Source: a virus. From it: a DNA stretch of 64,000 nt. The stretch's first letter is position 1. Each line of letters begins with the position of its first letter. The position numbers and the translations under genes are program-made. The notes beneath the pieces were generated by a model. It worked only from the letters and a program-made list of their open reading frames with translations, ran no database searches and had not been told where the DNA came from. The DNA is taken from the IMG/VR virus record IMGVR_UViG_3300042539_000280, positions 100,393 through 164,392 of that record; one strand, 5' to 3'. This document shows positions 19,487-56,362 of the stretch, piece by piece.

Positions 19487-20515
19487 TCATAATTTACTCC
19501 ACTGGTTCATTCTCATAGTCGCTAATAATCCTTTGTATGTATTATTATCTATAATGTGTTGGATGGCAGCAGGTGAGGTACCCGCCAGGACCATTTCGTT
19601 GATATCTTTTTCTTTTATGGTATCAGGCCAAATGCAGACCTTGTATCCCATTTCGATTGTTTTCCGCATATTAGAAACAATCTGTTTGTTCCTAGGTTCA
19701 TTATCATATACAAAAACGTAGTTCTTGTCAAGACCTAAGATGCGAGGAGCACCGTATAATGCTGCATCCATAGTAGCCACGCAATTAGTAAGGAAAAGAG
19801 AATCGATGGGTCCCTCAACCACATACACAGTTTGCAATGCATCCAATCTATCCCAGCCAAAAATCTTAGGGTTAGTTTCATCGCCTTTGATTGTGATATA
19901 TTTGATCTTCGCATGTCTGTCAAGTGATCGCCCCTGGATGCCTAGAAGGTTACCGTCCTTGTCTTTGAACGGTATGATTATGCGTGGTTCCTTATATAGT
20001 GTTTTCTCATAGTGTGGGTAAAGGTTCTTGACAAACTCCGCAAAGTCTGCCGCAAACCACATATCTATAAGAGATACCTTACGATCCTCAAGATACTTTC
20101 TTGCATAGAACTCTGGTGGTAACGCCTTGATACGACCCGCACCAGCAGCAAACAAAGCATCAGAACTTGGTACATGAAATAAAGGTTTGAATACCGGTTT
20201 GGTTACAAAGTCCTGAACGTTTACACTATTTCTGGTATTGGATTGCACAAAGGCCTCCAATACATAGTCACGGTATAGCATTGGATCTTCATCTTTTAGG
20301 AACTTTTGGAACGTGGTAGACGAATGACAGTTGTGGCACATAAAGAAGAAGTTTTCTTTCTTCTTATAGATATAACCACGGGCCTTTGTCTTATCCTTGG
20401 AGGAATCTCCACAAACAGGACATCTAAAGTTCCATAAAAACTCTCCCCGCTGCTTGAACTGTTTTAGTCTAGGAGCGAGGAGAGAGATATACTTCTTATC
20501 GATATAAACGGACAT
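19487..20515 (-). CDS. gp61: DNA primase (T4 gp61-like)
   Basis: CPVCGDS...CHNC zinc finger, RIIIPF, VVEGPIDS, YDNEPRN TOPRIM. Confidence 0.93.
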   Translation of the reverse strand: MSVYIDKKYISLLAPRLKQFKQRGEFLWNFRCPVCGDSSKDKTKARGYIYKKKENFFFMCHNCHSSTTFQKFLKDEDPMLYRDYVLEAFVQSNTRNSVNVQDFVTKPVFKPLFHVPSSDALFAAGAGRIKALPPEFYARKYLEDRKVSLIDMWFAADFAEFVKNLYPHYEKTLYKEPRIIIPFKDKDGNLLGIQGRSLDRHAKIKYITIKGDETNPKIFGWDRLDALQTVYVVEGPIDSLFLTNCVATMDAALYGAPRILGLDKNYVFVYDNEPRNKQIVSNMRKTIEMGYKVCIWPDTIKEKDINEMVLAGTSPAAIQHIIDNNTYKGLLATMRMNQWSKL

Positions 20516-24700: not shown

Positions 24701-24874
24701 TTAGTTGTAAGTTTGACCTACTACGCCTGGGACCTCGGGATTCTGAACTACAGGATCCGCAGGTTGACCAGTCTGGGTCTTTCCTGGGTTTATTAGTTTT
24801 TTATCGGCGGCCTTTTGCAAGGCCACCTTTGTATCTTCCTTGGCAATCTTCTTGCTGTCGGGTTTCTTTTTCAT
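24701..24874 (-). CDS. small late protein (57 aa)
   Basis: MKKKPDSKKIAKED...GKTQTGQPADPVVQNP; TAATG coupling. Confidence 0.55.
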   Translation of the reverse strand: MKKKPDSKKIAKEDTKVALQKAADKKLINPGKTQTGQPADPVVQNPEVPGVVGQTYN

Positions 24875-26382
24875 TATACGATCCTATATTTATTATCACC
24901 CACTGAAACATAACTTTCAGCAACCATCTTCTTTTCTTCTTGCTGAGTACCACCAAACTTACCTCTGTTGGCCCATGCCTTGCCGGCAGGACTATCAGCA
25001 GAATAAGATGGTTCAGGTGCCGCAGTAACAGAAGCCTTCACCTCTGGTGCCGGAGCAGGTGCGGTTTCAGGTGGTTTATTCTGTGAAATAAACCCACCAG
25101 TGTCACTTGTGGCATTTTTAGGTTTAGCTGCTGATCCTGCAATATCCGGAACACCTGTTGGCACTCTTGTAGTGGTAGTAGGTGTTCTTTCTGGATTAAG
25201 TCTAACACTACTAAATGTGTCAGGTTTTTCCGCTGCCTTCATGCCAGTATCTTGTTGTTTGATAGGTGTTGGTGAAAGAGATCCAGAAGAAGTGCCAGCT
25301 GTAGTGAGGCCGGCGACTCTTGTTAGACCTTGTCTACCAGGACCATATGATGCTCGATCAGTCGAAACATTTTTTGGTGCTGTGTCTGCCTTAGTTGCAG
25401 AAGAAGCAGTAGCAGGTGTTGATGACTTACCAACACTTGTCACCTTTTGCTGTGACATAGGCACAAACTTTTCTTCTGGTGCCTTTGCAGTTCCTTTGCC
25501 TCGAATGTTTGACTGATATGTACCAGTTTCACCAGTTTTTGGATTTGTCCATTTGAATTGGCCAGTTGACTTAGCACCCATTGATCCTGCTTCCTTACGG
25601 GCCTGTGAGAAGGCCTGCTTGAAAGAAGATGGTTCTGTCTTTGGTGCTGCCGCTGGTTTAGCAACAGGAGCAGACATTGTACCAGGTTCTTTTGTCTGGA
25701 CAGGAGCAATCTTAGAAGGTAGTTCCTGATTCTTGACAGAAGGTGCTAGTTCTCCACGTCTTGACATAGAACCAACCATACCAGTTTGTGTGTTCTTGAC
25801 AGATGCACTTGGTGTAGTTGATGAACGATAACCTGCAACTTGTGTCTTGCCTGTATCTGTTTTACGGAATACAGGATTACCTGGTTCGGTCTTAGTGGAA
25901 TCTGGAACTGCAAGACCAGCAACACCAAGGGCACGACCTGCCACCTTTGCTGCTATACCTTTTGCAACAGAACTGGCGGCCGCCACAGTAGCCTTAGGTG
26001 TGGCCATAGCGGCACGGCCGGCGCCACTCATTTTGGTCACCATTTGACTTGGTGATGACTTTGCCATCTTCTGTGCTACTTGACTACCACCCTGTGAGAA
26101 TGATGTAGAACCACCAACTGAGGATGGTTTCATTGATCCAGTAGCTTGCTGACTAAAACTTGGGTTGAATCGGTTAGAGATATTTCTCTTTACGTCAGTT
26201 GTGGTTGGTTTCATTGTACCGAAACTGGAACCCATTCTAGCACCACCTGATTTTACAGTTGTGCCTTGTGACGCAAAACTCTGACCTGCACGATAAGTAT
26301 TACCCTGTAGTCTTTGCTGCGATGCGCTTGCCTGACGACGAACACCTGGAACAGGCATTTCGACGTTAGGTGGCATCGACAT
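24874..26382 (-). CDS. low-complexity Ser/Thr/Ala/Lys-rich protein; probable -1 frameshift extension of the upstream gene
   Basis: no RBS before ATG 26382; reading frame open back to the slippery site at 26430. Confidence 0.65.
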   Translation of the reverse strand: MSMPPNVEMPVPGVRRQASASQQRLQGNTYRAGQSFASQGTTVKSGGARMGSSFGTMKPTTTDVKRNISNRFNPSFSQQATGSMKPSSVGGSTSFSQGGSQVAQKMAKSSPSQMVTKMSGAGRAAMATPKATVAAASSVAKGIAAKVAGRALGVAGLAVPDSTKTEPGNPVFRKTDTGKTQVAGYRSSTTPSASVKNTQTGMVGSMSRRGELAPSVKNQELPSKIAPVQTKEPGTMSAPVAKPAAAPKTEPSSFKQAFSQARKEAGSMGAKSTGQFKWTNPKTGETGTYQSNIRGKGTAKAPEEKFVPMSQQKVTSVGKSSTPATASSATKADTAPKNVSTDRASYGPGRQGLTRVAGLTTAGTSSGSLSPTPIKQQDTGMKAAEKPDTFSSVRLNPERTPTTTTRVPTGVPDIAGSAAKPKNATSDTGGFISQNKPPETAPAPAPEVKASVTAAPEPSYSADSPAGKAWANRGKFGGTQQEEKKMVAESYVSVGDNKYRIV

Positions 26383-26420
26383 TGCTAGTTCGTTTACCGA
26401 CTTACCCGTTCCCGGTGCGC

Positions 26421-27569
26421 CTAGAAACCCTGGTCTTCCTTCATGTGCTTGGCACGGATCTTGGCAAGGATAGCACCTGCTACCTTCTTACCACGTTCCT
26501 CTGAACCATAACGTTCGCCGGCCTTCTTAGCAATCATCTTGAATGATTTGCCTGGCTTACCAATGTCTTTACCAGCACGGGCAGCCTTGGCAGAATATGC
26601 GGCTTCATTTACTGTTTCTTCTGGTAGATGACCTGGCTTGGTGTGTGAACCAAGACGACGCTTGATATTGCCTTTTAGTGTGGCAGTATCTTGCTTATGA
26701 ACCTTACCAGATTTTGTCATTCTGTCTGTTGGATGGCGACGATCACGGGCAATGGAATCTTCTTTACCACGATCTTCACCACGGCGAACTAGACCTACAG
26801 ATGATTGAGCGCCAGCACGTTCGGCATTATGTGCAGTCTTTTTACCAAACTTTCTCTTGATTAGACCATGTAGTTTGCTGGTGTCTCTTTCTTGTGCTTC
26901 TTTTTCTCTATAAGCAGAGATAGCAGCCTTCTTTGAAACTTCATCAATCTGTTCATCTTCCTTGACCACATTCTGCATACGTTGTGTGGTTGGATTGCCT
27001 GGTGTTAGTGAAGATGCTGCACCTGGATAGGACTTAGGTGTTGATGGATCTTCCTTAGGAGCAGACTTAGTAACGTCGCCTGAACCTTGAACTGATGGAT
27101 CTCTTTTTACAACGTCAAGGCCTTCGCCCATCTTTTTCTTGCCACCCATCTGGTCTTTACCGAGACGACCAGCAACAACGTCACCACGGGTAACTTTGTC
27201 ATATGGAGGATAGTTGTTAGCAAGATTACCATCATTGCCTTCTTTTGTTAGTTCACGAGCAGTTCTCTTTGGTGACTGACCTGGGAATCCGCCCATCTTT
27301 TTGATGTGTTCCATGCCAGTCTTTTCTTCATGCTCTTTCTTCTTTTCTTTATTCTCTTTATTACCTTCTTTCATGCACTTATAGGCTTCTTCTAGTCTGG
27401 CATCATATGCTGCTAGTTGCTCTCTAACAACTGCCTTGCGAGAATATACACCAAACTCCTCGTTGACAAGGGCCTCGGCTTCACGGCGCATGTCGCCATC
27501 TTTTCTTGCTTCCATGACCGCTTGAACTAGAGGGTCCTTCTTGGTTAGAAATGGGTTGTTTCCAAACAT
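26421..27569 (-). CDS. putative internal head polyprotein
   Basis: EQIDEV, ETVNEA, LTKEG sites; basic modules; CTAAATA late promoter at 27612-27618. Confidence 0.7.
   Translation of the reverse strand: MFGNNPFLTKKDPLVQAVMEARKDGDMRREAEALVNEEFGVYSRKAVVREQLAAYDARLEEAYKCMKEGNKENKEKKKEHEEKTGMEHIKKMGGFPGQSPKRTARELTKEGNDGNLANNYPPYDKVTRGDVVAGRLGKDQMGGKKKMGEGLDVVKRDPSVQGSGDVTKSAPKEDPSTPKSYPGAASSLTPGNPTTQRMQNVVKEDEQIDEVSKKAAISAYREKEAQERDTSKLHGLIKRKFGKKTAHNAERAGAQSSVGLVRRGEDRGKEDSIARDRRHPTDRMTKSGKVHKQDTATLKGNIKRRLGSHTKPGHLPEETVNEAAYSAKAARAGKDIGKPGKSFKMIAKKAGERYGSEERGKKVAGAILAKIRAKHMKEDQGF
26424..26430 (-). other. -1 ribosomal frameshift heptamer G GGT TTC directly before TAG
   Basis: X XXY YYZ in the correct phase; the -1 frame reads 16 sense codons into the ORF at 26382. 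Confidence 0.75.
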
Positions 27570-27610: not shown

Positions 27611-29632
27611 TTATTTAGTATATTTCTTTTTTCTTCTGGATCCAAATAATGATTTCTTTTCAAATTCTGCTGCTGTAGCATTTTGTCGAACATCATCATT
27701 TCCAGTGGTTGCAGGTACCGATGACATAGTTCCTGAGTATGGATCGTCTAAACTCTCCATTCTCACCAACTTTTCGGCAGTCTCTTTCATCTTTTGTTCT
27801 GAAAGAGAACCATAACGTGCCTTGAAACGCTTTTTGGTTTCTTCACTCTGCATCCAACGATCTAGTCTTTGTCTGCTAATCTGTCTATCAAGACCGGTTA
27901 AATCAATTGCTTGATTATCACCGAATCCAGGTCCTTTTGGAAGGCCTGCTTCATCGCCTATTCTGTCAGCACCAATAGGTGCCGCAGATGGGCTTCTTAC
28001 TGTTTTCTGTTTCAAATCTAATACTCTCATAGGTTTGGGTGGACCAGGTTCTTGACCTGGGGTGTCTTGTGCATATCTATCTGTTAGTTTCTGGGTTCCC
28101 CAGTTACCTGCACCACCAACCAAAACCTTTCTATTGTTTGGAGAGAAGTCAGTATATCCCTCCAACATAGCCTGGAATTTACGATCATTATCAGTTGTAA
28201 CAAATTCATCAATCTCGGATGTTACCGAGTCAATTAGTTTTTGGTATGTTTCCTGAATAACTTTTTCGGATTGGTTTAGGTCTAAGTCATTCTTGACTTC
28301 AATGACCTTTTCAAATAACTGGTCGTATTTGTTTAGTGCGTCTTGTGCAGACTTCCACTTACCAAAGCGGACATTCTCTGCAATGACACGGCCTTTTCCA
28401 GCACGAGCCTCGTTTCTTAGTTTTGATACCTCGTTGCTGGTATTGACAAATACCATAATAGTTTCATAACCTCTGGCATCAAGTGACTCCTTGATACCTC
28501 TTGCTTTATCATAATCGAATGAACCATTGATGACTACATTACCTTCTAATGTAATCTTATGAAATTCGTCAGCATTTACCTCTGTAAATCCACATGGTAG
28601 AATTGCCTCTTTTAGAATCTTATCTTTACCAGAACCTGGTGTTCCAGCAAGAATGATGGCCTTTTCGGTCACATACTGCATATCGAAATAACTTGGATTC
28701 AAACTACCAAAATAACGCATTACCTTACCGGCATCTGCGTTGGCCTCGTTTTCAATCTTAGAACCGGTGGCACCTTCTTTCTTGATATCTTTACCAAGAC
28801 GACCATCAAGGTTCTGCTTATGATGAACCAACTCATGTGCTACTGAACGGAAGATATCCATCGGATGACGGTTCTTAGTTGCAACTCTAACCAATTTTTC
28901 ACCAGGTGAATAAGAAGCAAATGATGGTTGATTTACTGGATTCTTATCTCCACTTTCATCTGATCCCATGTATTGAAATTTTGGTCTTTCATCGATACCA
29001 AGATGGGCACAAGTAAAGTCAACGAATGACATCAACTTGTCATGAAATTCTTTTCTTGTCATACCACTGGTATCTTCTTTTAGAAAGGCACGAGTGGCGG
29101 TGAATATCTTTCGTGCTAGGGTCTTATCTTTGGCGGCAGATGCCTTGGCAAATGTGGCAAAGTCACCCTTGCGAACGGCTGCACGAAGATCGGTACCAGA
29201 AATTCCCTTCTTACGGGCACCTGATGACACGACCTCAAAATGTTTGAATGGATAATGAATCTTTGGATTGAAATCTTTGGCGGTTCTTGGTTTTACATAC
29301 TTAGTAAGTGATGTTCTAAACTCTTGAACACGGTCGTCACCGACAACAAATGTAACATCTTCATAACCTTCATCTGCTAGTTTCTTAGCAATAGCAAATG
29401 CGGTTTTCATCTTTGGATCATCCACAAAATTTACACCAGGGAATATCTGACGAAGAAACGTCATTTTCTCTCGTGGTGAAAGTGGATTTTTGGACGGATC
29501 ATGTGATTGGGAGGTATAGATACGGTGTTCGGCACCTTTTCTCTGTGCTAACTTTACCGCATATGTAATTAGTTCTGCATGGCCTGTGGTTGGCGGATTA
29601 TAACGGCCAAATGTGAATACAATCTTTTTCAT
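27611..29632 (-). CDS. multidomain protein: cytidylyltransferase-like (HIGH) + HExxH metallopeptidase-like + P-loop kinase
   Basis: FTFGRYNPPTTGH, VVGDDR, ISGT.LR; AHELVHHKQ...E.EANA.AG; ILAGTPGSGK. Confidence 0.8.
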   Translation of the reverse strand: MKKIVFTFGRYNPPTTGHAELITYAVKLAQRKGAEHRIYTSQSHDPSKNPLSPREKMTFLRQIFPGVNFVDDPKMKTAFAIAKKLADEGYEDVTFVVGDDRVQEFRTSLTKYVKPRTAKDFNPKIHYPFKHFEVVSSGARKKGISGTDLRAAVRKGDFATFAKASAAKDKTLARKIFTATRAFLKEDTSGMTRKEFHDKLMSFVDFTCAHLGIDERPKFQYMGSDESGDKNPVNQPSFASYSPGEKLVRVATKNRHPMDIFRSVAHELVHHKQNLDGRLGKDIKKEGATGSKIENEANADAGKVMRYFGSLNPSYFDMQYVTEKAIILAGTPGSGKDKILKEAILPCGFTEVNADEFHKITLEGNVVINGSFDYDKARGIKESLDARGYETIMVFVNTSNEVSKLRNEARAGKGRVIAENVRFGKWKSAQDALNKYDQLFEKVIEVKNDLDLNQSEKVIQETYQKLIDSVTSEIDEFVTTDNDRKFQAMLEGYTDFSPNNRKVLVGGAGNWGTQKLTDRYAQDTPGQEPGPPKPMRVLDLKQKTVRSPSAAPIGADRIGDEAGLPKGPGFGDNQAIDLTGLDRQISRQRLDRWMQSEETKKRFKARYGSLSEQKMKETAEKLVRMESLDDPYSGTMSSVPATTGNDDVRQNATAAEFEKKSLFGSRRKKKYTK

Positions 29633-44320: not shown

Positions 44321-44395
44321 TGGTTCAGGATCATGGATTCGAACCACGAATACCGGAGTCAGAGTCCGGGGTTTTACCAGTTAAACTAATCCTGA
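44321..44395 (-). tRNA. tRNA-Gln(CTG)
   Basis: cloverleaf, CCGGA-CT-CTG-AC-TCCGG, CCA. Confidence 0.9.
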
Positions 44396-44398
44396 ATA

Positions 44399-45862
44399 TT
44401 ATAGACTTAGTTTTTTGTGTTTATAATCTTGTAATCGGTCATAGAAAATTGAGTCATCCATATGTGTTTGAAACCCAACTTTTGATTTCAAACAATCTAA
44501 GATTGATAGATTTCTTTGATAAAGAAAATGTAAATTAAATCCAGTCGCTCCATATTCGCCACTATTGTATAGGTGAAAGTTCATATCATTGCATATATCT
44601 TGTGCCGTAAAAATGTCCATGTTATCATTTTCCCACATCATTTTTTTAGCAACTTGTTCGATACCAATTCTTTCTACCTTTGAATTTGTTATATGTCGAT
44701 ATCCCCATTTGCTATAATCTAAACTAAGGGTAGATAACCTGTCCATTGTCGGATCTAGTGGAATTTCCAAAGGATTGATACTATAAAATTCACCTTTCCA
44801 ATTTTCCTCAAGCCAATTGAAAGTTCTATTCAACGTTTCTACTGTTTCGTGTGGGAGACCGGCAATAAGTGATATATGACCACGATAATATCCATCACCA
44901 TGAGTTTTGAAATATTGTTTGGCATCCAGAATACCACTCAATATTTTTTCCATATTACTACTTTTTCCAATAGTCTTAGCACTCGCAGGATTCAGACTTT
45001 CTAATCCATAGAAATGAGCAACCATCCCTAGGCGAACCATAGGTTCCCAATCTTGAGGTCTAATTGCTAATAAGTCACCTCTCAAAAATGCGCTAAAGAA
45101 GGGTCTAAAAGATAATCTATCCGCCGCATCAGCATACTTTACAACCTTTTCAGTATAATCATTGAATGTTTCATCTGCTACAAAATAATTTGAAACACCC
45201 CAATTATCATAGTTGGTTGACATTTCCTCATAAAAATCTTCGGCACTCCGAGTATAATCACCTTTTACTCCCAAAATGGGGTAGTTACAATACAAACATT
45301 TGAAGATGCAACCACGGGAAAATTCCATGGTCAACCATTCTCGTTGGTCGATAAAGTCTCGGTTTTGATAAACGATTTTTACTTCTTTTTGAGGAAAAGC
45401 AGGATAGTCTTTAATTGCATTGATAACTTTTTTATCTTCATAAATAGGATCAAACTTAATACCTTCAATTGGTGTATTGCCTATTAGGCTTTTTGTCAAT
45501 TCGGTTATAGCCTTTTCACCATATCCATGAACATAATAATGAATATAATTCGTTTTCATTCTTGGTGAACTTTGACCACCTAGAATGATCGTTACATCAG
45601 GATAATTTTCTGTAACCCATTGACAGAATAATTCTAAGTTTGGATCCCAATAACTCATAAAAGCACTAAATCCAACAAATACAGTTTTGTTGGATATTCG
45701 TGATCTACATATTTCTTTTAGTTCATCCAATTCAAAGAAGTTGGCCCAGTCAATGACCTCAACATCCCATCCTTCTTGTCTCAGATGGGTGGCAATTCTA
45801 TGTCCGCCTGGTAATCTTTTGTTGAAGTTTTCACAAATACTAAAGATCAAAGCATGGTGCAT
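44399..45862 (-). CDS. B12-binding radical SAM protein
   Basis: N-terminal cobalamin-binding-like domain (IILGG, GYGE); SRGCIFKCLYC; DETFN; GLES; GLPHET. Confidence 0.85.
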   Translation of the reverse strand: MHHALIFSICENFNKRLPGGHRIATHLRQEGWDVEVIDWANFFELDELKEICRSRISNKTVFVGFSAFMSYWDPNLELFCQWVTENYPDVTIILGGQSSPRMKTNYIHYYVHGYGEKAITELTKSLIGNTPIEGIKFDPIYEDKKVINAIKDYPAFPQKEVKIVYQNRDFIDQREWLTMEFSRGCIFKCLYCNYPILGVKGDYTRSAEDFYEEMSTNYDNWGVSNYFVADETFNDYTEKVVKYADAADRLSFRPFFSAFLRGDLLAIRPQDWEPMVRLGMVAHFYGLESLNPASAKTIGKSSNMEKILSGILDAKQYFKTHGDGYYRGHISLIAGLPHETVETLNRTFNWLEENWKGEFYSINPLEIPLDPTMDRLSTLSLDYSKWGYRHITNSKVERIGIEQVAKKMMWENDNMDIFTAQDICNDMNFHLYNSGEYGATGFNLHFLYQRNLSILDCLKSKVGFQTHMDDSIFYDRLQDYKHKKLSL

Positions 45863-45900
45863 AAATATCTCTTACTATGGATTCACTCCATTATATAGAT

Positions 45901-45975
45901 TGGATCGGGGACAAGGACTCGAACCCTGATAGACAGAACCAAAATCTGCCGTTCTACCAATTAAACTATCCCCGA
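45901..45975 (-). tRNA. tRNA-Gln(TTG)
   Basis: cloverleaf, anticodon TTG, CCA. Confidence 0.9.
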
Positions 45976-45982
45976 ACAAAGA

Positions 45983-46066
45983 TGGTGCCGAGAGTAGGGT
46001 TCGAACCTACCGTGCTATAAGCGTCCGATTTACAGTCGGGTGCCCGTCCACTCAGGCGGTCTCGGC
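45983..46066 (-). tRNA. tRNA-Tyr(GTA)
   Basis: anticodon GTA, long variable arm, CCA. Confidence 0.9.
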
Positions 46067-46070
46067 ATAT

Positions 46071-46144
46071 TGGTTGTCCCTGATGGTATCGATCCATCGT
46101 CTATCGCTTATCAAGCGATTGCTCTACCTTTGAGCTAAGGGACA
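46071..46144 (-). tRNA. tRNA-Ile(GAT)
   Basis: ATCGC-TT-GAT-AA-GCGAT; T-loop ATCGATA. Confidence 0.88.
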
Positions 46145-46327
46145 GCAACTTTTAAACCTGTCAGTGGAATCTCATAGGACTCCACCGACACAATCTTTGA
46201 AACTCCTCTACAAGTAGCAATGAAACTTTCTGTATCTTTCCAGTTTCTAAAAGAAGTCTGGTATGTATTGCTACCATCTTTGATAAACACTATAAACTGT
46301 TTACCTTCTTTTGTCAAGTCAATCATT

Positions 46328-46792
46328 TCAAAACTCCTTACGAGACTGGTTACACTCGAAAGTATACCAGCCTTCGGCACGACAGGCATCGATGATACGG
46401 TGACGATCATCAAACATTGCACCAACAGTATAACCAGGGTTAGCAGCAAGCCAATTCTTGATAATCGCAACCTTCAAAAGGTCATCATTACCACGAAAGC
46501 CGAAAGGACGCATATACATATCATCGTGGGACATCCACGGGATATGCTTATTGACCCATTCTAAAGTATCCTCACGAAAACGCTCATCACGGGCAGTAAC
46601 GATAATCACCTTATCACCCGGACGATCATTAGCCAAAGCGTGTAACACATCGATTACAGGCTGATAAGGCTCATCCAAATGCTGCTTTGAAAAGAACGCA
46701 TCCCATTCCTTTTTACCATTATCAAGATGGTGCATACGATGTTCGTTATCAGCAAGAGTGCCGTCAATATCAAAAATCCAAACCTTATTCAT
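46328..46792 (-). CDS. HAD polynucleotide 3'-phosphatase (PseT C-terminal domain only)
   Basis: FDIDGTLA, VTAR, MRP, K, FDDR. Confidence 0.85.
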   Translation of the reverse strand: MNKVWIFDIDGTLADNEHRMHHLDNGKKEWDAFFSKQHLDEPYQPVIDVLHALANDRPGDKVIIVTARDERFREDTLEWVNKHIPWMSHDDMYMRPFGFRGNDDLLKVAIIKNWLAANPGYTVGAMFDDRHRIIDACRAEGWYTFECNQSRKEF

Positions 46793-46850
46793 TCCTTTTC
46801 CTTTCACATTATGTCTAATCCTATCACATTCGAAAAGGAATGTCAAGTAA

Positions 46851-46924
46851 TGGTGCCGGTTAACGGAATCGAACCGCTATCAGAGGACTACGAAACCACT
46901 GTAATGCCATTATACTAAACCGGC
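46851..46924 (-). tRNA. tRNA-Thr(CGT), weak anticodon stem
   Basis: acceptor and T arms canonical; two U-U mismatches in anticodon stem. Confidence 0.7.
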
Positions 46925-46929
46925 GTAAC

Positions 46930-47004
46930 TGGTGCCGCAAGTAGGAATTGAACCTACGACCTTTCCCTTACCATGGGAATGCACTACCTCTGTGCTATTG
47001 CGGC
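46930..47004 (-). tRNA. tRNA-Thr(GGT)
   Basis: TTCCC-AT-GGT-AA-GGGAA. Confidence 0.9.
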
Positions 47005-47007
47005 GAA

Positions 47008-47081
47008 TGGTACTGGGACTAGGTATCGATCCTAGGCTCCGAGTTCCACAAACTCGGGTGCTTCCATTACACTACCCCAGC
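47008..47081 (-). tRNA. tRNA-His(GTG), alphaproteobacterial type
   Basis: anticodon GTG; G1:U72, A73, no encoded G-1. Confidence 0.9.
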
Positions 47082-47085
47082 AAAT

Positions 47086-47163
47086 TGGTAGGCGCACTCG
47101 GATTCGAACCGAGAAAACTTACGGGTTTGAGCCGACTGACTTTACCTATTTGTCCATGCGCCC
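47086..47163 (-). tRNA. tRNA-Leu(CAA), short variable loop
   Basis: anticodon CAA, A73, CCA. Confidence 0.75.
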
Positions 47164-47164
47164 A

Positions 47165-47240
47165 TGGTGCGTCCCCTTAGAATCAAACTAAGTCCTTCGG
47201 TACTTCAAGCCGACGTGCGGATCACCTACACCAGGGACAC
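47165..47240 (-). tRNA. tRNA-Phe(GAA), atypical
   Basis: anticodon GAA with G37; T-loop TTTGATT. Confidence 0.7.
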
Positions 47241-47245
47241 ATAAA

Positions 47246-47320
47246 TGGTGCTTCATAGGAGTATCGATCTCCTCTTTCCCGCTTGAGAGGCGAGTGTCCT
47301 AGCCAATAGACGAATGAAGC
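47246..47320 (-). tRNA. tRNA-Glu(CTC)
   Basis: CTCGC-CT-CTC-AA-GCGGG. Confidence 0.88.
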
Positions 47321-47327
47321 ATAATAA

Positions 47328-47494
47328 GTGAGGATGAGGTGCCCAACCCCTCGCCTGCTGCTCCTCGACAGCGCCCTCTCTCCTGCAAATCCTAAACAGT
47401 CACGAATAGGACCGAGAGGCATGACTTGCGCCGAGCCGATGGCGACTAACCCACCCAGGCATTATTTCGGCTACAGAGGTCACGGCGACCTATT
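47328..47494 (-). ncRNA. unknown GC-rich structured RNA in tRNA array
   Basis: stems GGTC/GACC, AGCCGA/TCGGCT, TCCTA/TAGGA, GCTG/CAGC, GAGG/CCTC; not a cloverleaf. Confidence 0.45.
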
Positions 47495-47496
47495 AA

Positions 47497-47588
47497 GAAG
47501 AAACGCTCCACCTATAGAGGATACTTAATGCTTAGTGTGCGATCACTAAGAATGTTCTCCCGGTTTCGCATCCCGGTACCGTTTCTTC
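47497..47588 (-). ncRNA. unknown multi-stem RNA in tRNA array
   Basis: 9-bp closing stem GAAGAAACG/CGTTTCTTC enclosing CCGG/CCGG, CTTAGTG/CACTAAG and CCT/AGG hairpins. Confidence 0.55.
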
Positions 47589-47592
47589 AATA

Positions 47593-47668
47593 TGGTGGAC
47601 GTGAGAGGACTTGAACCCCCAACCTTCTCCGTGCAAAGGAGTTGCGCTCCCAGTTGCGCCACACGCCC
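47593..47668 (-). tRNA. tRNA-Ala(TGC)
   Basis: anticodon TGC, G3:U70. Confidence 0.9.
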
Positions 47669-47673
47669 ATAAC

Positions 47674-47748
47674 TGGCGACCCGTAGGGGTATCGATCCCC
47701 TCTCCCTAGCGTGACAGGCTAGAGTCCACACCTGCTGACTCACGGGCC
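47674..47748 (-). tRNA. tRNA-Asp(GTC)
   Basis: CTAGC-CT-GTC-AC-GCTAG, G73. Confidence 0.88.
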
Positions 47749-47811
47749 ATTAATTGGCTGGGACTTCACAGAGGTATAGGCTCTCCGTCCCGTAACTTTC
47801 CTATACTGCAT

Positions 47812-47888
47812 TGGTGCGCCTGGCAGGACTCGAACCTGCAAAATCTGGTTTCTAAGACCAGCGCCTTTACCAATTTGACCACAAGCGC
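47812..47888 (-). tRNA. tRNA-Leu(TAG), short variable loop
   Basis: CTGGT-CT-TAG-AA-ACCAG. Confidence 0.85.
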
Positions 47889-47893
47889 ATATA

Positions 47894-47968
47894 TGGTGCG
47901 GAATGATGGAATCGAACCACCGACACCCTGCGTGTAAAACAGGTGTTCTGCCATTGAACTAATCCCGC
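47894..47968 (-). tRNA. tRNA-Val(TAC)
   Basis: anticodon TAC. Confidence 0.9.
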
Positions 47969-47973
47969 ATAAC

Positions 47974-48059
47974 TGGCGGATAAGTGAGGTCTCGATCCCC
48001 AAGCCTCTCGGCTCCTTTCGTTTTCGAAACGAAGGCCAGTCCCACTGACTTACTTATCC
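47974..48059 (-). tRNA. tRNA-Ser(CGA)
   Basis: anticodon CGA, long variable arm, G73. Confidence 0.85.
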
Positions 48060-48065
48060 ATAAAC

Positions 48066-48154
48066 TGGCGGAGTAGTAGGTATCCGACACCTATTCCCTT
48101 TCGGGAACCATCCGCTTTCCAAGCGGTGCAGACTCCTTGCCTGTTACTTACTCC
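48066..48154 (-). tRNA. tRNA-Ser(GGA)
   Basis: anticodon GGA, long variable arm, G73. Confidence 0.8.
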
Positions 48155-48155
48155 G

Positions 48156-48243
48156 TGGCGGAGGGCGACGGTCTCGATCCGCATACCCCTAAGGATACCC
48201 TTGGTTTAGCAAACCAGGACAAGTCCCACCTGCTTCACCCTCC
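48156..48243 (-). tRNA. tRNA-Ser(GCT)
   Basis: anticodon GCT, long variable arm, G73. Confidence 0.85.
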
Positions 48244-48244
48244 G

Positions 48245-48385
48245 TTACATTCCAAACTGTGCCTTTACGGCAGTAACAATTTCATCAATGACGGTGTTGA
48301 TTTCATCGTCCGTCTGTGTAATTCCAAAACGATCTCTTAGAATAGATACAATAGCACTTCTTGTTTCATCTGTCAAGTTAAACAT
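48245..48385 (-). CDS. 46-aa hypothetical protein
   Basis: MFNLTDETRSAIVSILRDRFG...; GAGGAG RBS; contains an embedded TTGACA promoter. Confidence 0.45.
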   Translation of the reverse strand: MFNLTDETRSAIVSILRDRFGITQTDDEINTVIDEIVTAVKAQFGM

Positions 48386-48388
48386 TAT

Positions 48389-49000
48389 TTATCTCCTCAA
48401 AATCTCGGCTCTACTGCCGATAGTTTCATCATAGAATATATTAAACGCTACTGATGTTCTGTTAATGGTAGATTTGTTCTCCGTTACCGAGTGATACAAT
48501 TTACTAGGAAACAGATACAAATCATACTTCTTAGGATTATATATCATGTGTGACCAATTGAATTGGGTACCATTGGTCATACCATCCCTAAAGGTTTCTT
48601 CCATGTATTGTGGTCGGTAGATTAGAAAATCACCACTGTCATCGTCCACATTCATGTAAAGACAACCACTGACTTTACTATTAGGGTGATAGTGTTTATG
48701 ATGACTATCCCCAGGTCTATTCAGGTTCAACCACGAACCTGTTATGCCTAACTTAGGCGACTCGCCTAAAATTTGGGTGCTGTAATGATCAATATATTCC
48801 TGTATGACAGGTTTTAGTTTTAGACCGTTCAACACAGTATAATCTTTACTTATAACATTGATAACATTACCTTCGGTATGACTTGGATCGTTAGCCTTGT
48901 TATCAAGGAACTCAATCTCATTAGTCATTTCTTCATTCAATACTGAACCGAGATTGACTATCATCACCGGTAATGGAAAGATACTATCAACCTTTATCAT
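48389..49000 (-). CDS. 2OG-Fe(II) oxygenase (TIGR02466-like)
   Basis: SWLN...HHKHYHPNS.VSGCLY...LFPSKLYHSV..N...R.SVAFN. Confidence 0.85.
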   Translation of the reverse strand: MIKVDSIFPLPVMIVNLGSVLNEEMTNEIEFLDNKANDPSHTEGNVINVISKDYTVLNGLKLKPVIQEYIDHYSTQILGESPKLGITGSWLNLNRPGDSHHKHYHPNSKVSGCLYMNVDDDSGDFLIYRPQYMEETFRDGMTNGTQFNWSHMIYNPKKYDLYLFPSKLYHSVTENKSTINRTSVAFNIFYDETIGSRAEILRR

Positions 49001-49133
49001 TACTGACTTAGTAGAATGTTAATATCGCTTACAATAAATCCTACTGTAATAGCGATAGCAAAGAAAATGACCAGGCGAAAGATGGCCTGATATTTTAGTT
49101 GTTCTCTATCCATATATATTACCTCTCACGAAA

Positions 49134-49211
49134 TGGTCTAGGTGGAGGGATTCGAACCCCCGTTATTCTTCGTCCCAAACGAAGTGCCATACCAGGCTAG
49201 GCGACACCTAG
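49134..49211 (-). tRNA. tRNA-Pro(TGG)
   Basis: CTTCG-TT-TGG-GA-CGAAG. Confidence 0.9.
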
Positions 49212-49218
49212 ATAAAAC

Positions 49219-49292
49219 TGGCGAAGGTACCAAGAGTCGAACTTGGGCTTGCGGTTTTGGAGACCGCCGTGCTACCGTAACACTTTACCAAC
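49219..49292 (-). tRNA. tRNA-Trp(CCA)
   Basis: anticodon CCA; two mismatches in acceptor stem. Confidence 0.75.
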
Positions 49293-49294
49293 AT

Positions 49295-49369
49295 TGGGTG
49301 CGGACCCATGAGTCGAACATGGCTCTCTTGCTTATGAGACAAGAATGGTCACCGGACCACCTGACCGCA
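49295..49369 (-). tRNA. tRNA-CAT (Met/Ile2), atypical
   Basis: CTTGT-CT-CAT-AA-GCAAG; C discriminator. Confidence 0.65.
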
Positions 49370-49376
49370 ATAACTC

Positions 49377-49451
49377 TGGTGCTGGAAGTTGGAATCAAAC
49401 CAACCTTTAAGGCCTTATGAGGACCCTTCGACATCTTGCCGACCTACCAGC
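49377..49451 (-). tRNA. tRNA-CAT (Met/Ile2), atypical
   Basis: GGGTC-CT-CAT-AA-GGCCT; T-loop TTTGATT. Confidence 0.65.
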
Positions 49452-49511
49452 ATATTGATGGGCGGGTGTGGCTGACACCCTTTAAATGCACCCGCTAGAT
49501 GCTACCCATAT

Positions 49512-49588
49512 TGGCGTTCCCGGAAGGACTCAAACCCTCAACCTCTGGTTTCGTAGACCAGCGTTCTATTCAGTTGAACTACGGAAAC
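49512..49588 (-). tRNA. tRNA-Arg(ACG)
   Basis: CTGGT-CT-ACG-AA-ACCAG. Confidence 0.88.
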
Positions 49589-49597
49589 ATACTAAAC

Positions 49598-49671
49598 TGG
49601 AGCGGGTAGGTGGTACTGACCCACCTTCTACACGTTGGCAACGTGTCATAATACCTTTATACTATACCCGC
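49598..49671 (-). tRNA. tRNA-Gly(GCC)
   Basis: anticodon GCC, U73; atypical T-loop GTCAGTA. Confidence 0.8.
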
Positions 49672-49675
49672 ATAT

Positions 49676-49751
49676 TGGAGGATCCGGTCGGGCTCGAACC
49701 GACAACCGTAGGATTAAAAGTCCTCTGCACCACCTATTGTGCTACGGATCC
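49676..49751 (-). tRNA. tRNA-Lys(TTT)
   Basis: anticodon TTT. Confidence 0.88.
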
Positions 49752-49756
49752 ATAAT

Positions 49757-49832
49757 TGGTGAACCTGGAAGGAATCGAACCTTCAACACACGGATTAAGA
49801 GTCCGCTACTCTACCAATTGAGTTACAGGTCC
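49757..49832 (-). tRNA. tRNA-Lys(CTT)
   Basis: anticodon CTT. Confidence 0.9.
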
Positions 49833-49837
49833 ATAAT

Positions 49838-49912
49838 TGGTGACCCCTAGCGGAATCGAACCGCTCTACCAAGATTGAAAGTCTTGTGTCCTAACCGATA
49901 GACGAAGGGGCC
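49838..49912 (-). tRNA. tRNA-Glu(TTC)
   Basis: CAAGA-CT-TTC-AA-TCTTG. Confidence 0.9.
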
Positions 49913-49916
49913 GTAT

Positions 49917-49991
49917 TGGCTGGAATGGCAGGATTCGAACCTGCGACCAAGTGATTAACAGTCACCTGCGCTACCGCTGCGCCACATTCCA
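49917..49991 (-). tRNA. tRNA-Asn(GTT)
   Basis: anticodon GTT, U1:A72, G73. Confidence 0.9.
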
Positions 49992-50012
49992 ATATAAATG
50001 TATTAATAGTAA

Positions 50013-50087
50013 TGGAGGGCCGTCCCGGAATTGAACCGAGTTCTCAAGGATTTGCAGTCCCGTGCCTTACCGTCCGACTCACGGCCC
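50013..50087 (-). tRNA. tRNA-Cys(GCA)
   Basis: anticodon GCA, U73. Confidence 0.88.
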
Positions 50088-50124
50088 TTACTATAACCAT
50101 ATTCAATTGTCAAACAGCATACAA

Positions 50125-50322
50125 CTAGGCAATCTTATACTCTTTATACTTGCGCTGAATGGACACAGTGCCATGCGCTTTCAATCGAGCATAATCTCGG
50201 AATGCCGAGCCGTCTTTATCGTGGTACTCTTTGCGATAGTTTGGACGACCGTTACGGTCACAAGCCTCAACTATCCAAAAGTAATCTCGTTTTATGTTTT
50301 CATCCTTCATGTCGTCTCTCAC
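50125..50322 (-). CDS. hypothetical protein
   Basis: short ORF under its own promoter cassette. Confidence 0.5.
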   Translation of the reverse strand: MRDDMKDENIKRDYFWIVEACDRNGRPNYRKEYHDKDGSAFRDYARLKAHGTVSIQRKYKEYKIA

Positions 50323-50335
50323 TCAACAGTTGCAT

Positions 50336-50436
50336 ACTATATAGGCGCCAGATGGCAAAGTCAAGAACTTTTTTCACTTTTTTCTGCGACATTTTGACGC
50401 ACCCTTAGTCTATTGATTAGATAGACTGTTTACATT
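50336..50436 (-). promoter_or_regulatory. promoter/operator cassette copy 5
   Basis: TTGACT-17-TATAGT; TGCGACAtttTGACGCACCCTTAGTCTAT at 50385-50413. Confidence 0.75.
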
Positions 50437-50438
50437 CG

Positions 50439-50514
50439 TGGTAGAGGTGGAGGGATTCGAACCCCCGGTAGAACCGTTATGAGCGGCTGGCCTTAACCAC
50501 TTGGCTACACCTCT
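50439..50514 (-). tRNA. tRNA-CAT (Met/Ile2)
   Basis: AGCCG-CT-CAT-AA-CGGTT, canonical cloverleaf. Confidence 0.88.
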
Positions 50515-50520
50515 ATGTAA

Positions 50521-50597
50521 TGGCGGTCCCAATAGGATTCGAACCTATAACCTGCCGCTTAGAAGGCGGCTGCACTATCCTGTTGTGCTATGGAACC
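50521..50597 (-). tRNA. tRNA-Arg(TCT)
   Basis: GCCGC-CT-TCT-AA-GCGGC; TTGACA-17-TATACT promoter just upstream. Confidence 0.9.
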
Positions 50598-50663
50598 AAT
50601 CTTTCCTGATTGTCTGATTAGTATATAGGCACCGGATCATAATGTCAAGCATTATTTTAGGAA

Positions 50664-50912
50664 TTATTCCGAAAACTCCATAGCGAATGCCTGGTTTATA
50701 TCAGGTTTTGGGGCCCTTGTCAACATAAAAGATGGTGTGAATCCGTCAAATCCGCCACCTCTTTCAAGTCGGTTTGTTTCCAATACGGCATCTTCCTCGA
50801 AAAGGAATGTGGCGATAACTTGTTCTGTGGCAGTTTCATAGACATGCCACTCCAAACAATCGTATTCATCAAACTCTGGATAATATGTATATTTCATTTT
50901 AGACCCTATCAA
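50664..50912 (-). CDS. T4-like conserved hypothetical protein
   Basis: VYE..T.QVI..F...GGGFDGFTP.F. Confidence 0.65.
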   Translation of the reverse strand: MIGSKMKYTYYPEFDEYDCLEWHVYETATEQVIATFLFEEDAVLETNRLERGGGFDGFTPSFMLTRAPKPDINQAFAMEFSE

Positions 50913-51402
50913 AGAATATTTGAATTGATGTTCTAACGGGGCTATGACTAGACAAAGCCGATACCGAATGTTCTACATTACCTTCATGGTAAATTGCTAA
51001 ATTTTTTCTAGGAACTAAACCTTTTATTGTGTTGTTATCATTATAAAGATACAGACCTCCATGATTTTTATTCCATCCATCTAATAGATAGATCGTCATG
51101 GCACCTCTATACTTTGTATCATCATGCCAAGGTATGTGAGATCCTGGAGTGAAATAATAAAAAGACATTAATGATATTTCATTATATCTTACATGTTTCT
51201 GTAAAGTATCTTCAATTCTTTTTCTTAGATCATTCTTGTCTATATCATGTATCAATATGAGACTGCTATCCTGAATAATATATTCCGGCCAAAATTGATT
51301 TGTAGAAAATTTCACATATTGACTACCCCATAATTGATAAGAATATTCTGCACAGTCATAAAACAAATCTTCATCTAAAAAGTTTTCATATTGAGTAATC
51401 AT
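50899..51402 (-). CDS. 2OG-Fe(II) oxygenase
   Basis: WHDD, TIYL..W...GG, HSVS, R.SIQIF. Confidence 0.8.
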   Translation of the reverse strand: MITQYENFLDEDLFYDCAEYSYQLWGSQYVKFSTNQFWPEYIIQDSSLILIHDIDKNDLRKRIEDTLQKHVRYNEISLMSFYYFTPGSHIPWHDDTKYRGAMTIYLLDGWNKNHGGLYLYNDNNTIKGLVPRKNLAIYHEGNVEHSVSALSSHSPVRTSIQIFFDRV

Positions 51403-52775
51403 ACTTTGAGTCCTTTGAACTTGCTTTTACCACCATCAAACTTTCTCGGAATCGGTTCTGGTTCAGGTTGTCCTGAATCCGCCAAGTCTTGTGCAGATTG
51501 TTCAACATCATACAACTTCATTTTAGACCTGTCAACCCCGATAACAAATCTTTTATAAAGACCTGGGTCACCATAGCGGTTTTTCAACTGTTTCACCTGG
51601 ATCTGTTTCAACTGCTCCATGGTTTCATTCGTGATAAGTGCCACGAAGAAGTCGGCAGTGGCCGGTAGACCAAACGACTCGGAGGTATCAGTCATATCAG
51701 GATCAGATGAACCATAACCACCTCTGGTCAACTGTGTAGCAGACCAGACAGGCACATTGAACTCAACCGCAAGACCTCTAAGTTCCTCGGCGATTGCCTT
51801 GATATATGTATAACTATTGGCCACACCTGCCTTCACACGGGAGGAGGAACAGATGTTTAGATAGTCGATCATAATGGCATCAGGAACAAAGTTCTTCTTG
51901 AGGTTCAATTCATTCAACAATGCTCTAAAGTGGTTCGTGGATGCTGTGGAGGTGGCATACTCTTTCACAATCAACTTACCATGTGTTTTCTCTTTCAACT
52001 TATCAATCTTGTTCTTATACACGTCCTTAGGAAGGAGCATAAGGTCATCAAGTGTAATGTTTAGGAGATTGGCGTCGATACGTTCTGCCACTCGTTCCTC
52101 AGACAACTCTAAAGTAATGTAAAGAACGTTTTTACCTTGATTAAGGTAAGAAGAAGCAAGATGGCAAAGAGTAAGTGATTTACCAACACCGACGCCAGCC
52201 ATAACGATATTGAGAGTCTTTTTCGGGACTCCATTCTTGGTAATCTTGTTAAAGAACTCCAGATCAAACGGTAGTCTTTCTTCAACTCTGTGATAATACT
52301 CATATCTATCCTCTGCTTGTTCTAAATAATCGTGACCAACATTCGGGTCAAAAGATATAGCCAGAGCGTCAGACAACAAAGTAGGTATAGCGCCCTTAGT
52401 GAGTCTCCCCTTCCCATTCATAATCTCCAATGATTCGGTAATAGCATTATAGATTGCACGTTCCTGACAAAACTTCTCGGTGTTCTCCACCAACCAATCT
52501 TCATTGGTCTCGGTCGTGTCAGCAGTAAGTTCTTTGATTGTTTCTTTGATATTCTTGATAGTATCGTCGGTAGATCCACGAATGTTATCTACCTCAATCT
52601 CCAAGGCATCGATAGTTGGTTGCTGATTATATTTCAGAACAAAACCAGCCACTTCTTGGAAAAGCAGCCGGTCTTCCTGGTTCGGAAAGTAATCAGGTTT
52701 TAGAAACGGTAGGACCTTACGAGTGAACTTCTCGTTCTTGATCAGGTTCTTTAGTATCGTTTGTTCTAGTCTCAT
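51399..52775 (-). CDS. gp41: replicative DNA helicase (T4 gp41-like)
   Basis: AGVGVGKS, ITLEL, IDYLNIC, IAEELRGLA, SESFGLPATAD, QLKNRY. Confidence 0.93.
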   Translation of the reverse strand: MRLEQTILKNLIKNEKFTRKVLPFLKPDYFPNQEDRLLFQEVAGFVLKYNQQPTIDALEIEVDNIRGSTDDTIKNIKETIKELTADTTETNEDWLVENTEKFCQERAIYNAITESLEIMNGKGRLTKGAIPTLLSDALAISFDPNVGHDYLEQAEDRYEYYHRVEERLPFDLEFFNKITKNGVPKKTLNIVMAGVGVGKSLTLCHLASSYLNQGKNVLYITLELSEERVAERIDANLLNITLDDLMLLPKDVYKNKIDKLKEKTHGKLIVKEYATSTASTNHFRALLNELNLKKNFVPDAIMIDYLNICSSSRVKAGVANSYTYIKAIAEELRGLAVEFNVPVWSATQLTRGGYGSSDPDMTDTSESFGLPATADFFVALITNETMEQLKQIQVKQLKNRYGDPGLYKRFVIGVDRSKMKLYDVEQSAQDLADSGQPEPEPIPRKFDGGKSKFKGLKV

Positions 52776-52788
52776 GTAAGTCCTTGTT

Positions 52789-53415
52789 TCACGGCCGGTC
52801 AGCATCCAAAAATATATTACCTGATATGCTTATCCTTTCTTCATCCGTTGAGCAGAAAGGATAAACACAATGTAGCAATTTGGATGGAAAGAGTATTATA
52901 ACACCTTCATATTCTTTTGTCAAATCAAATCTTTGAGACCATAAACTTCCTAGAGTAGTTGGGTAAGTAAATTCAAATTGACCAGAATAAGTCGTTGCCA
53001 TTTCACCCATTCTTCCATATTCCTTTTCAAGGCCGTAAGGTATCTTGACCCAAATGGTATATGAATAGACACCTTGATGCACATGGTTAGGAATGAATTG
53101 GCCTTTTTTCTGTATATTGAACCATGGATCCCCCGCTGTAAACGGGAGATTCTTTGATAGAATATCGACATATCTTATATAATCGAAACTTTCATTATAT
53201 TCTTTGACCAGAGATAACACATAATCTTGTAATGCTTTTTTATCCTTGATCCAGAAATGTTTAGTTACACCCATAGATGATAGACCAGTGGTCATAACAT
53301 CTTCGGACTCTCTCCATTCTAAACATTCTTTTTTTAGATTATTGAAAAGTTCATCAGGCACATTCTTCTTTAAATAACCAATGTTGGGTAATGCAACTGC
53401 ACCCTCATTTTTCAT
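52789..53415 (-). CDS. 2OG-Fe(II) oxygenase-like protein
   Basis: WFN.Q...PNHVH.G.YS...LFPSKL.HCVYPF...RISISGN. Confidence 0.8.
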   Translation of the reverse strand: MKNEGAVALPNIGYLKKNVPDELFNNLKKECLEWRESEDVMTTGLSSMGVTKHFWIKDKKALQDYVLSLVKEYNESFDYIRYVDILSKNLPFTAGDPWFNIQKKGQFIPNHVHQGVYSYTIWVKIPYGLEKEYGRMGEMATTYSGQFEFTYPTTLGSLWSQRFDLTKEYEGVIILFPSKLLHCVYPFCSTDEERISISGNIFLDADRP

Positions 53416-53722
53416 CACCACTCTCCGAGTTAGCCTCGGCTTCTGACGCATCCAATAGTAGGGCATTTAGAATCAGTCCAAGAACCTCGTTGAATCTCTG
53501 GTTTTTCCGTAGTGTCACCATAGATAAATCATTTGTCTTATCTATTTCATAATCATATAACATTCTTGGGATGTTGTCCTCACCCATCTTGAATGTCACT
53601 TGGGTATAATGATACACCACTCCGGCGAACGGGTCAAGATTCAATTCTATTGGAACTGTAGTTCCATCTTTCTTAGAATCGAACAAGTCATCCCGAAATA
53701 CATAATCAATTCCTAGTTCCAT
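53405..53722 (-). CDS. gp40-like head assembly chaperone
   Basis: position between uvsX and 41; F.GV.Y.Y..V motif. Confidence 0.5.
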   Translation of the reverse strand: MELGIDYVFRDDLFDSKKDGTTVPIELNLDPFAGVVYHYTQVTFKMGEDNIPRMLYDYEIDKTNDLSMVTLRKNQRFNEVLGLILNALLLDASEAEANSESGDEK

Positions 53723-55398: not shown

Positions 55399-55425
55399 AA
55401 GATTCTCCTTTCGTCAGTTTAGTTT

Positions 55426-56178: not shown

Positions 56179-56362
56179 GCAACTTCCTTAAAGTGTTTCT
56201 GTAGTTCCGGTGATAGTTTCTTTAGAAGATCACCACCGACCCCAACTCGAACCAGTGTGGCTAGTTCGACTACGTTGTTGGGTGTAATTGTTCCTTCGTC
56301 TGGCACAAACTCATAAAGACGGGCGGGTGAATGTTTTAGATGCTTATCTTCTGTCTTTTTAC

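Follow-up and report, generated by a model that had tools for sequence, protein, structure and literature searches.

The subject of this analysis is the junction of two adjacent open reading frames (ORFs) in a 64,000-nucleotide stretch of viral DNA, positions 100,393 to 164,392 of the IMG/VR record IMGVR_UViG_3300042539_000280, which we refer to as the window. Both ORFs, together with the signal elements between them, lie on the minus strand. The upstream ORF (26421–27569, P0001) encodes 382 amino acids in the 0 frame, arranged as a conserved N-terminal domain of ~70 residues, variable basic modules and a conserved module ending in KHMKED, and its C-terminus reads ...KEDQGF. Exactly as a first-pass annotation of this DNA had described, the ORF ends with CAG GGT TTC TAG, where the slippery heptamer G_GGT_TTC (26424–26430) is phased for a tandem −1 slip and the 0-frame stop codon TAG (26421–26423) stands immediately 3' of the slip codon. 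A second 0-frame stop follows 8 codons beyond the first. The −1 frame is open across the gap, where it reads F-L-G-A-P-G-T-G-K-S-V-N-E-L-A-M into ATG 26382; counted from the slip codon it spans 517 codons including Phe (24874–26427), ends in ...VGDNKYRIV, and contains the annotated 502-residue ORF that starts at this ATG (24874–26382, P0002). The V-N-E codons of this bridge (26389–26397) form a hydrophobic-x-Glu motif. The 22 nt before ATG 26382 hold no Shine-Dalgarno (SD)-like motif, in agreement with the earlier remark that the downstream ORF has no ribosome-binding site.

We estimate that such a configuration in a single window, namely two ORFs in −1 phase, an open gap of 13 codons and a correctly phased heptamer close to a stop, lies within chance, with about one expected per ~80 gene pairs. 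The window alone is therefore insufficient, and the junction becomes significant because it is conserved in relatives.

Conservation of the split junction and of the −1 frame

Relatives were gathered by protein-seeded scans of IMG/VR and by a search of a large protein collection. They provided 19 distinct split junctions on metagenomic phage contigs, 11 of them from protein seeds that did not constrain the junction, 3 from protein-cluster sampling and 5 from DNA patterns. About half of the metagenome pattern matches were chance hits, such as true P-loop ATPases (L073). The bridge G-A-P-G-T-G-K-S itself resembles a Walker A motif by coincidence, its first Gly being missing in most relatives. 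The relatives constitute a modular family, in which the conserved ~70-residue N-terminal domain is followed by variable basic modules split by acidic hydrophobic-x-Glu linkers, often by a module ending in K-H-M-K-E-D, and by a variable Ser/Thr/Pro/Ala-rich part ending in G-x-x-K-Y-R-I-V. The junction after K-E-D takes three forms: it is split, it is in frame with the junction cassette downstream, or it is in frame and cassette-free. In this third group K-E-D is followed by a hydrophobic-x-Glu motif, a protease-type site occupying the place of the cassette at the same junction.

In all 19 split junctions N_NNT_TTY abuts a TAA or TAG stop, and the ORF that follows occupies the −1 frame. Among the 120 best cluster representatives carrying the upstream module, 34 have x-x-F termini (QSF 18, SSF 9, QGF 6 and ESF 1). 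As the codon before UUY, most members use UCU; the window shares GGU with several others (the 'QGF' clusters), and a single member uses GAU. A check of heptamer and stop in homologous genomes had been suggested; the stop and U_UUY are kept, whereas the canonical G_GGT_TTY occurs in the window and a minority only. The ~45 nt around the junction are much better conserved than the flanks. Pairwise comparison of the 11 split forms obtained from protein seeds gives a third-position identity of 0.91 in this cassette and of 0.52 in the best-conserved (N-terminal) protein domain.

The −1 frame carries a protein signal of its own. Several split relatives contain no ATG, GTG or TTG for a considerable distance past the slip, namely 131 codons in L124, 36 in L103, 28 in L080, 27 in L167 and 24 in L166. 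The complete −1 ORFs are 152–517 codons long, and all but one (L052) end in G-x-x-K-Y-R-I-V. From its first residue, the −1 reading of the window aligns with the interior of 753-residue single-ORF relatives (the L012 group; 44% identity, E 2e-58), and the start-less stretch of L124 aligns with the single-ORF relative L136. Nearly all split forms share the bridge F-L-x-A-x-x-x-G-K-S-V-x-E, and the in-frame relatives have F-N-x-A-x-x-x-G-K-S-V-x-E of equal length, which fits a −1 shift and not a +2 shift. The proposal that the apparent intergenic gap is coding is thus borne out, as the 13 bridge codons are conserved as protein and align with the in-frame relatives; the V-N-E site noted in it is also present, with hydrophobic-x-Glu kept at this place in nearly all cassette-bearing relatives. 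The ratio of non-synonymous to synonymous substitution rates (dN/dS) on the start-less bridge had little to measure, since the close relatives L103, L070 and L079 show zero substitutions in the first 60 codons. The downstream −1 ORFs of the start-less relatives are not explicable by initiation of their own; in the window itself, the ATG at codon 15 could serve for initiation.

Two split relatives show individual peculiarities. In L120:2372-2779 (IMG/VR contig 3300032284_001200) the upstream part contains an extra in-frame TAG (N-Y-S-G-stop-K-G-G-G) where relatives have Tyr; this may be a nonsense mutation, an error in the reads or a further recoding event. In L162:125-1345 (an ENA contig) the public gene call translates only with TAG read as Gln. 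Here the automatic caller changed the genetic code to bridge the stop, creating a spurious 23-residue 0-frame tail.

RNA elements at the junction

Covariation and RNAalifold place a small hairpin at 26404–26418, beginning 5 nt past the heptamer. In the window it consists of a G-U and a C-G pair, a bulged A, and a 3-bp stem (C-C-G / C-G-G, 26413–26415 / 26406–26408) closing a GGAA tetraloop of the GNRA type, and the tetraloop is GNRA in most copies. Across 18 distinct sequences, 98.9% of the hairpin cells are paired although the pair types vary, with the middle stem pair being AU in 9, CG in 6 and UA in 3, and the loop-closing pair GC in 15, AU in 2 and UA in 1. The observed covariation score was matched by none of 500 shuffles, and pairing fell to 10–40% when the partner columns were slid as a control. 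The main covarying pair joins a second codon position (Gln/Pro/Leu, non-synonymous) to a synonymous Thr third position. Since one side is synonymous, the covariation does not arise from protein selection.

The other RNA elements named in the first-pass annotation fared less well. An AAGGA SD-like element is present at 26441–26437, 6 nt upstream of the heptamer, but it is not conserved: 10 of 15 sequences have AAGGA and 5 have AAAGA, and we rejected an upstream SD stimulator as a conserved element. Likewise, the repeat ACCGG (26416–26412) / TCGGT (26400–26396) exists as described, yet the stem it was thought to form is broken in most relatives, where the central pair becomes A-G and the base covaries with a different partner.

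Beyond the hairpin, the invariant 3' tail GGTAAGTCGG(T) (26396–26405) encodes G-K-S-V in the −1 frame. We found no conserved pseudoknot partner for this tail by eye within a 74-nt region, RNAalifold predicts none, and no Rfam family matches 26250–26600. The tail segment UAAGUCGGU (26396–26404) shares 7 of its 9 positions with the SD consensus, the two mismatches being central. A role as ribosome-binding site is doubtful, because the distance from the tail to the first ATG varies among relatives from 7 to >390 nt.

Frameshift model, rival explanations and known systems

The comparative sequence evidence makes it probable, and we hold this with considerable confidence, that ORFs 26421–27569 and 24874–26382 are one gene, expressed through a programmed −1 frameshift as products of 382 and about 898 residues. 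This was the core of the earlier proposal, a −1 programmed frameshift outside the tail-chaperone context yielding products of 382 and ~900 residues, and it receives strong comparative support. Most ribosomes would stop at the TAG past Phe382 and release the short product, a basic and largely disordered protein. A minority would move one base back on G_GGU_UUC, tRNA-Phe re-pairing from UUC to UUU; in the window, tRNA-Gly would also be able to re-pair from GGU to GGG. The slipped ribosomes would then decode CUA (Leu) and go on for 516 codons in all, giving the long protein, whose predicted trans-frame tryptic peptide is EDQGFLGAPGTGK. The slip is probably helped by the abutting stop and by the small GNRA-loop hairpin, the position of which suggests a stimulatory role. 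Because U_UUY next to a stop is the sole invariant slip element, the event common to the family would be that tRNA-Phe leaves UUY and re-pairs with UUU, in the A site as translocation proceeds or in the P site before the stop is decoded. We infer which tRNA slips in which ribosomal site, as well as the efficiency of the slip. The phage carries its own tRNA-Phe(GAA) and tRNA-Leu(UAG), the latter reading the first −1 codon CUA.

The in-frame relatives add a second aspect to this model. Eleven distinct in-frame relatives have S-F at the junction, and the hairpin is intact and covarying in 8 of them. All 11 carry TTT followed by AAY, AAA or GAT, so that a −1 slip would immediately meet TAA or TGA and give the same short ...S-F product. 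The Phe codon is TTT in 11/11 in-frame relatives versus 5/16 split junctions (hypergeometric probability about 3e-4, relatedness ignored); among three split junctions added later, it is TTT in two and TTC in one. These patterns raise the possibility, which we regard as attractive but somewhat short of favoured, that one cassette of U_UUY and mini-hairpin works in two polarities, with split members extended by a −1 slip and in-frame members truncated by it in the manner of dnaX. If so, both isoforms would be required, and with slip near 50% the two layouts would be interchangeable, which would explain the repeated switching between them. It would also be, to our knowledge, a rare case of one recoding cassette flipping between extending and truncating modes in evolution.

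Several observations weigh against a programmed frameshift at this site. The P-site codons UCU and GAU of most relatives cannot re-pair canonically, and the site is not a textbook heptamer. Some of the nucleotide conservation could stem not from purifying selection but from a recent spread of the cassette by recombination. The hairpin is weak (−3 to −7 kcal/mol, indistinguishable from shuffles), the compensatory events behind its covariation are perhaps few (a minimum of 2 at each of the two pairs), and its retention in in-frame relatives may point to another purpose. Moreover, an SD-like motif precedes about 60% of the other window genes and about 35% have none, which makes the missing ribosome-binding site weak evidence. 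Finally, the window and most relatives have an ATG 13–19 codons past the slip, and ribosomes initiating there independently could supplement frameshifting or take its place in these members.

The last two points also speak for two separate genes, the 502-residue protein arising solely from initiation at ATG 26382 (or 26376) and the heptamer being incidental: an ATG or GTG is available 13–19 codons past the stop in the window and most relatives, and about a third of the window genes lack an SD-like motif anyway. We nevertheless consider this unlikely, as relatives with no start codon for 24–131 codons keep intact homologous −1 ORFs, the protein sequence of the 13 bridge codons before the ATG is conserved and can be aligned with in-frame relatives, and the stop position and U_UUY are invariant over the 19 junctions. 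Somewhat less probable still is that the 45-nt cassette serves mainly another purpose, for instance as a recombination linker for module shuffling, an RNA processing or pausing element, or a G-K-S-V-x-E protein motif, with the frame change tolerated and not used. The weakness of the hairpin, the persistence of hairpin and tail in in-frame relatives, and the occurrence of identical cassettes beside unrelated downstream modules (L038 versus L124) would all be compatible with such a purpose, but it leaves unexplained the invariable stop after U_UUY with its −1 downstream frame and the open, conserved, start-less downstream ORFs, and the −1 stop that every in-frame S-F relative keeps directly after TTT fits frameshifting there too.

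It had been foreseen that homologs consisting of one in-frame ORF would point to a sequencing error. Some relatives are indeed single in-frame ORFs, as would be expected if an indel had arisen in assembly or sequencing, or if a single-ORF gene had recently been inactivated by mutation. Yet an error is not what these relatives indicate, given that 19 distinct junctions and 34 protein clusters retain the stop. The same stop stands at the same codon in many independent samples and assemblers, both TAA and TAG are used, five codon contexts precede the site, the downstream ORFs are intact, and no long homopolymer at the site favours read errors; an indel or inactivation can hardly be credited. Equally improbable is genuine recoding by another route, either a +2 shift or a short bypass that skips the stop, whose product would lack one residue (…QGF-GAPG…). 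The −1 and +2 frames coincide, and a one-residue difference in a disordered linker is not resolvable by in-frame relatives. However, no matching landing codon for tRNA-Phe lies downstream, U_UUY allows perfect or near-perfect −1 re-pairing, and the in-frame linker length (F + 5 residues + T-G-K) equals that of the −1 product. Three further mechanisms were rejected. Stop readthrough or a suppressor tRNA does not suit a downstream ORF in another frame, with a further 0-frame stop 8 codons on and no suppressor among the 27 phage tRNAs; transcriptional slippage does not suit T runs merely 3–5 long; and a bypass of the gene 60 type has no landing codon.

Programmed −1 frameshifting thus remains our preferred explanation, and it has several known counterparts. 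In E. coli dnaX (tau/gamma), a −1 slip on A_AAA_AAG with a stem-loop 5–6 nt downstream produces two isoforms. The window resembles it in its probable −1 slip on a heptamer, its hairpin 5 nt on and the two isoforms predicted from one gene, and the in-frame relatives come closer still, as a −1 slip there would meet a stop at once, as in gamma synthesis. In contrast to dnaX, the slip site is U_UUY, an SD element upstream is not conserved, the hairpin is much smaller, and the slip in the window would lengthen the protein whereas that of dnaX truncates it. In T7 gene 10A/10B, a −1 frameshift by tRNA-Phe at a G/U-rich site near the end of the short ORF yields a minor extended capsid protein. Our junction shares with it a probable phage −1 frameshift outside tail chaperones, a G/U-rich site, tRNA-Phe and a C-terminal extension; the T7 extension, however, adds ~50 residues to a capsid protein, compared with 516 on an uncharacterised modular protein here, and here the stop directly abuts the slip codon. 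The bypass in T4 gene 60 crosses a 50-nt coding gap between matched take-off and landing codons, with a stop directly after the take-off codon and a small hairpin. The likeness lies in probable recoding in a T4-like phage, a stop directly after the slip codon and a small adjoining hairpin, whereas our junction has no 50-nt gap and no UUY landing codon downstream, and its bridge is conserved as protein in the −1 frame. For tail chaperones of the lambda G/GT type, conservation across phages of a −1 slip near the end of the upstream ORF is the main evidence (PMC10885494). Our site is likewise near the end of the upstream ORF and likewise supported mainly by conservation, but its gene belongs to the gp41-gp61 island, where its neighbours encode a nucleotidyltransferase/Zeta-like kinase, DUF6267, a glycosyltransferase, gp41 and gp61 instead of tail tube and tape measure proteins.

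No earlier description of the site was found in the literature on cyanophage frameshifting and slippage or in the PRFect paper. Taken as a frameshift, the site is a new phage −1 programmed one of a mechanism class already known, possibly with a new twist. With it, a T4-like phage lineage gains a conserved −1 frameshift that has good support, in a gene family unrelated to tail chaperones, capsid proteins and transposases; automated annotation breaks the gene into two 'hypothetical proteins'. The compact signal, made up of U_UUY, an abutting stop and a covarying 3–5 bp hairpin usually with a GNRA loop, offers a handy model for a minimal bacterial frameshift stimulator.

Protein modules and genome setting

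Neither ORF matched any family in Pfam (E up to 5) or PHROG (E up to 0.01). A search of the ESM Atlas returned only unnamed viral clusters, and the model is mostly disordered (predicted local distance difference test, pLDDT, 0.51). The earlier label of head proteins is not supported, as Pfam and PHROG gave no match to a capsid, scaffold, portal or decoration family and the gene sits between gp41 and gp61. Hydrophobic-x-Glu motifs mark the module boundaries, standing before every copy of the conserved module and again 12 residues past the slip, and in some relatives the post-slip part contains a LysM domain. With this layout, the product could be a polyprotein that is delivered with the virion and cleaved at its hydrophobic-x-Glu sites by a prohead protease of the T4 type. 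The internal proteins of T4 carry a capsid-targeting sequence and are cut by the gp21 prohead protease (PMC9026906). Our protein resembles them, in appearance only, through its basic modules split by hydrophobic-x-Glu motifs; it differs in having no sequence homology to the T4 internal proteins and an N-terminus that is not obviously like a capsid-targeting sequence. Getting the gene models right is important for virion proteomics and for any account of modular, possibly injected, phage proteins of this sort.

The whole genome is 164,392 bp long with a GC content of 41%. It is that of a T4-like myovirus, whose replication module makes up the window, with gp43 polymerase (56363–58912), UvsX (54358–55398), gp41 helicase (51399–52805) and gp61 primase (19487–20515), as well as ribonucleotide reductase and ligase genes. 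The polymerase is only ~47% identical to that of the nearest cultured phages, Synechococcus myoviruses, which indicates a distant T4-like lineage. The 27 tRNA genes are all on the minus strand, mostly in one cluster (window 44321–61226, genome 144713–161618); tRNAs Phe-GAA, Leu-UAG, Gly-GCC and Gly-UCC decode codons of the slip site, and none of the 27 is a suppressor. Cultured phages yielded neither a homolog of the downstream ORF nor a match for the cassette DNA or a neighbouring 206-residue ORF; P0001 gave short module matches only.

Within the gp41-gp61 replication island, the ORF pair 26421–27569 / 24874–26382 is preceded by a gene for a 673-residue nucleotidyltransferase/Zeta-like kinase fusion (27611–29632, minus strand). 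Its product has a cytidylyltransferase-like domain at residues 1–189 and a Zeta-toxin/P-loop kinase-like domain at about 365–447, and in every relative whose flank is long enough, this gene stands ahead of the putatively frameshifted one. On the downstream side come a small basic ORF, a 206-residue PHROG-613 protein and a 571-residue modular protein; other neighbours encode DUF6267 and a glycosyltransferase, and the gene order around the pair is repeated in relatives. The small basic ORF (24701–24874, minus strand) encodes 57 residues, fewer than the threshold of the ORF list, and begins within the stop of the 502-residue ORF (TAATG); in relatives the same place is held by small ORFs of 42–94 residues. 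A CTAAATA motif resembling a T4-type late promoter lies on the minus strand at 27612–27618, 43 nt upstream of ATG 27569. The number of CTAAATA motifs in the window equals the chance expectation, making this weak evidence, and we rejected a late promoter at this position.

Two modules of the upstream ORF also occur elsewhere. The basic module at 27132–27236 (minus strand; P0001 residues ~99–135, …N-N-Y-P-P-Y-D-K-V-T-R-G-D…) is 77–85% identical in DNA over ~105 nt to the 5' end of the neighbouring 'cytidyltransferase'-type gene in Synechococcus phages S-M1, QB2, S-IOM18 and others. With polymerases only ~47% identical as proteins, this module apparently moves between distant T4-like phages and different genes. 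The ~60-residue module before the slip (A-A-Y-S-A-K-A … K-H-M-K-E-D) is likewise found elsewhere, with P0066, the P0142 type (L142:4923-6176) and LR756501.1 as its carriers. It stands at the N-terminus of unrelated proteins, accompanies a ferritin-like/DUF7230 protein and occurs in an uncultured 'megaphage' of 735 kb, behaving as a portable domain.

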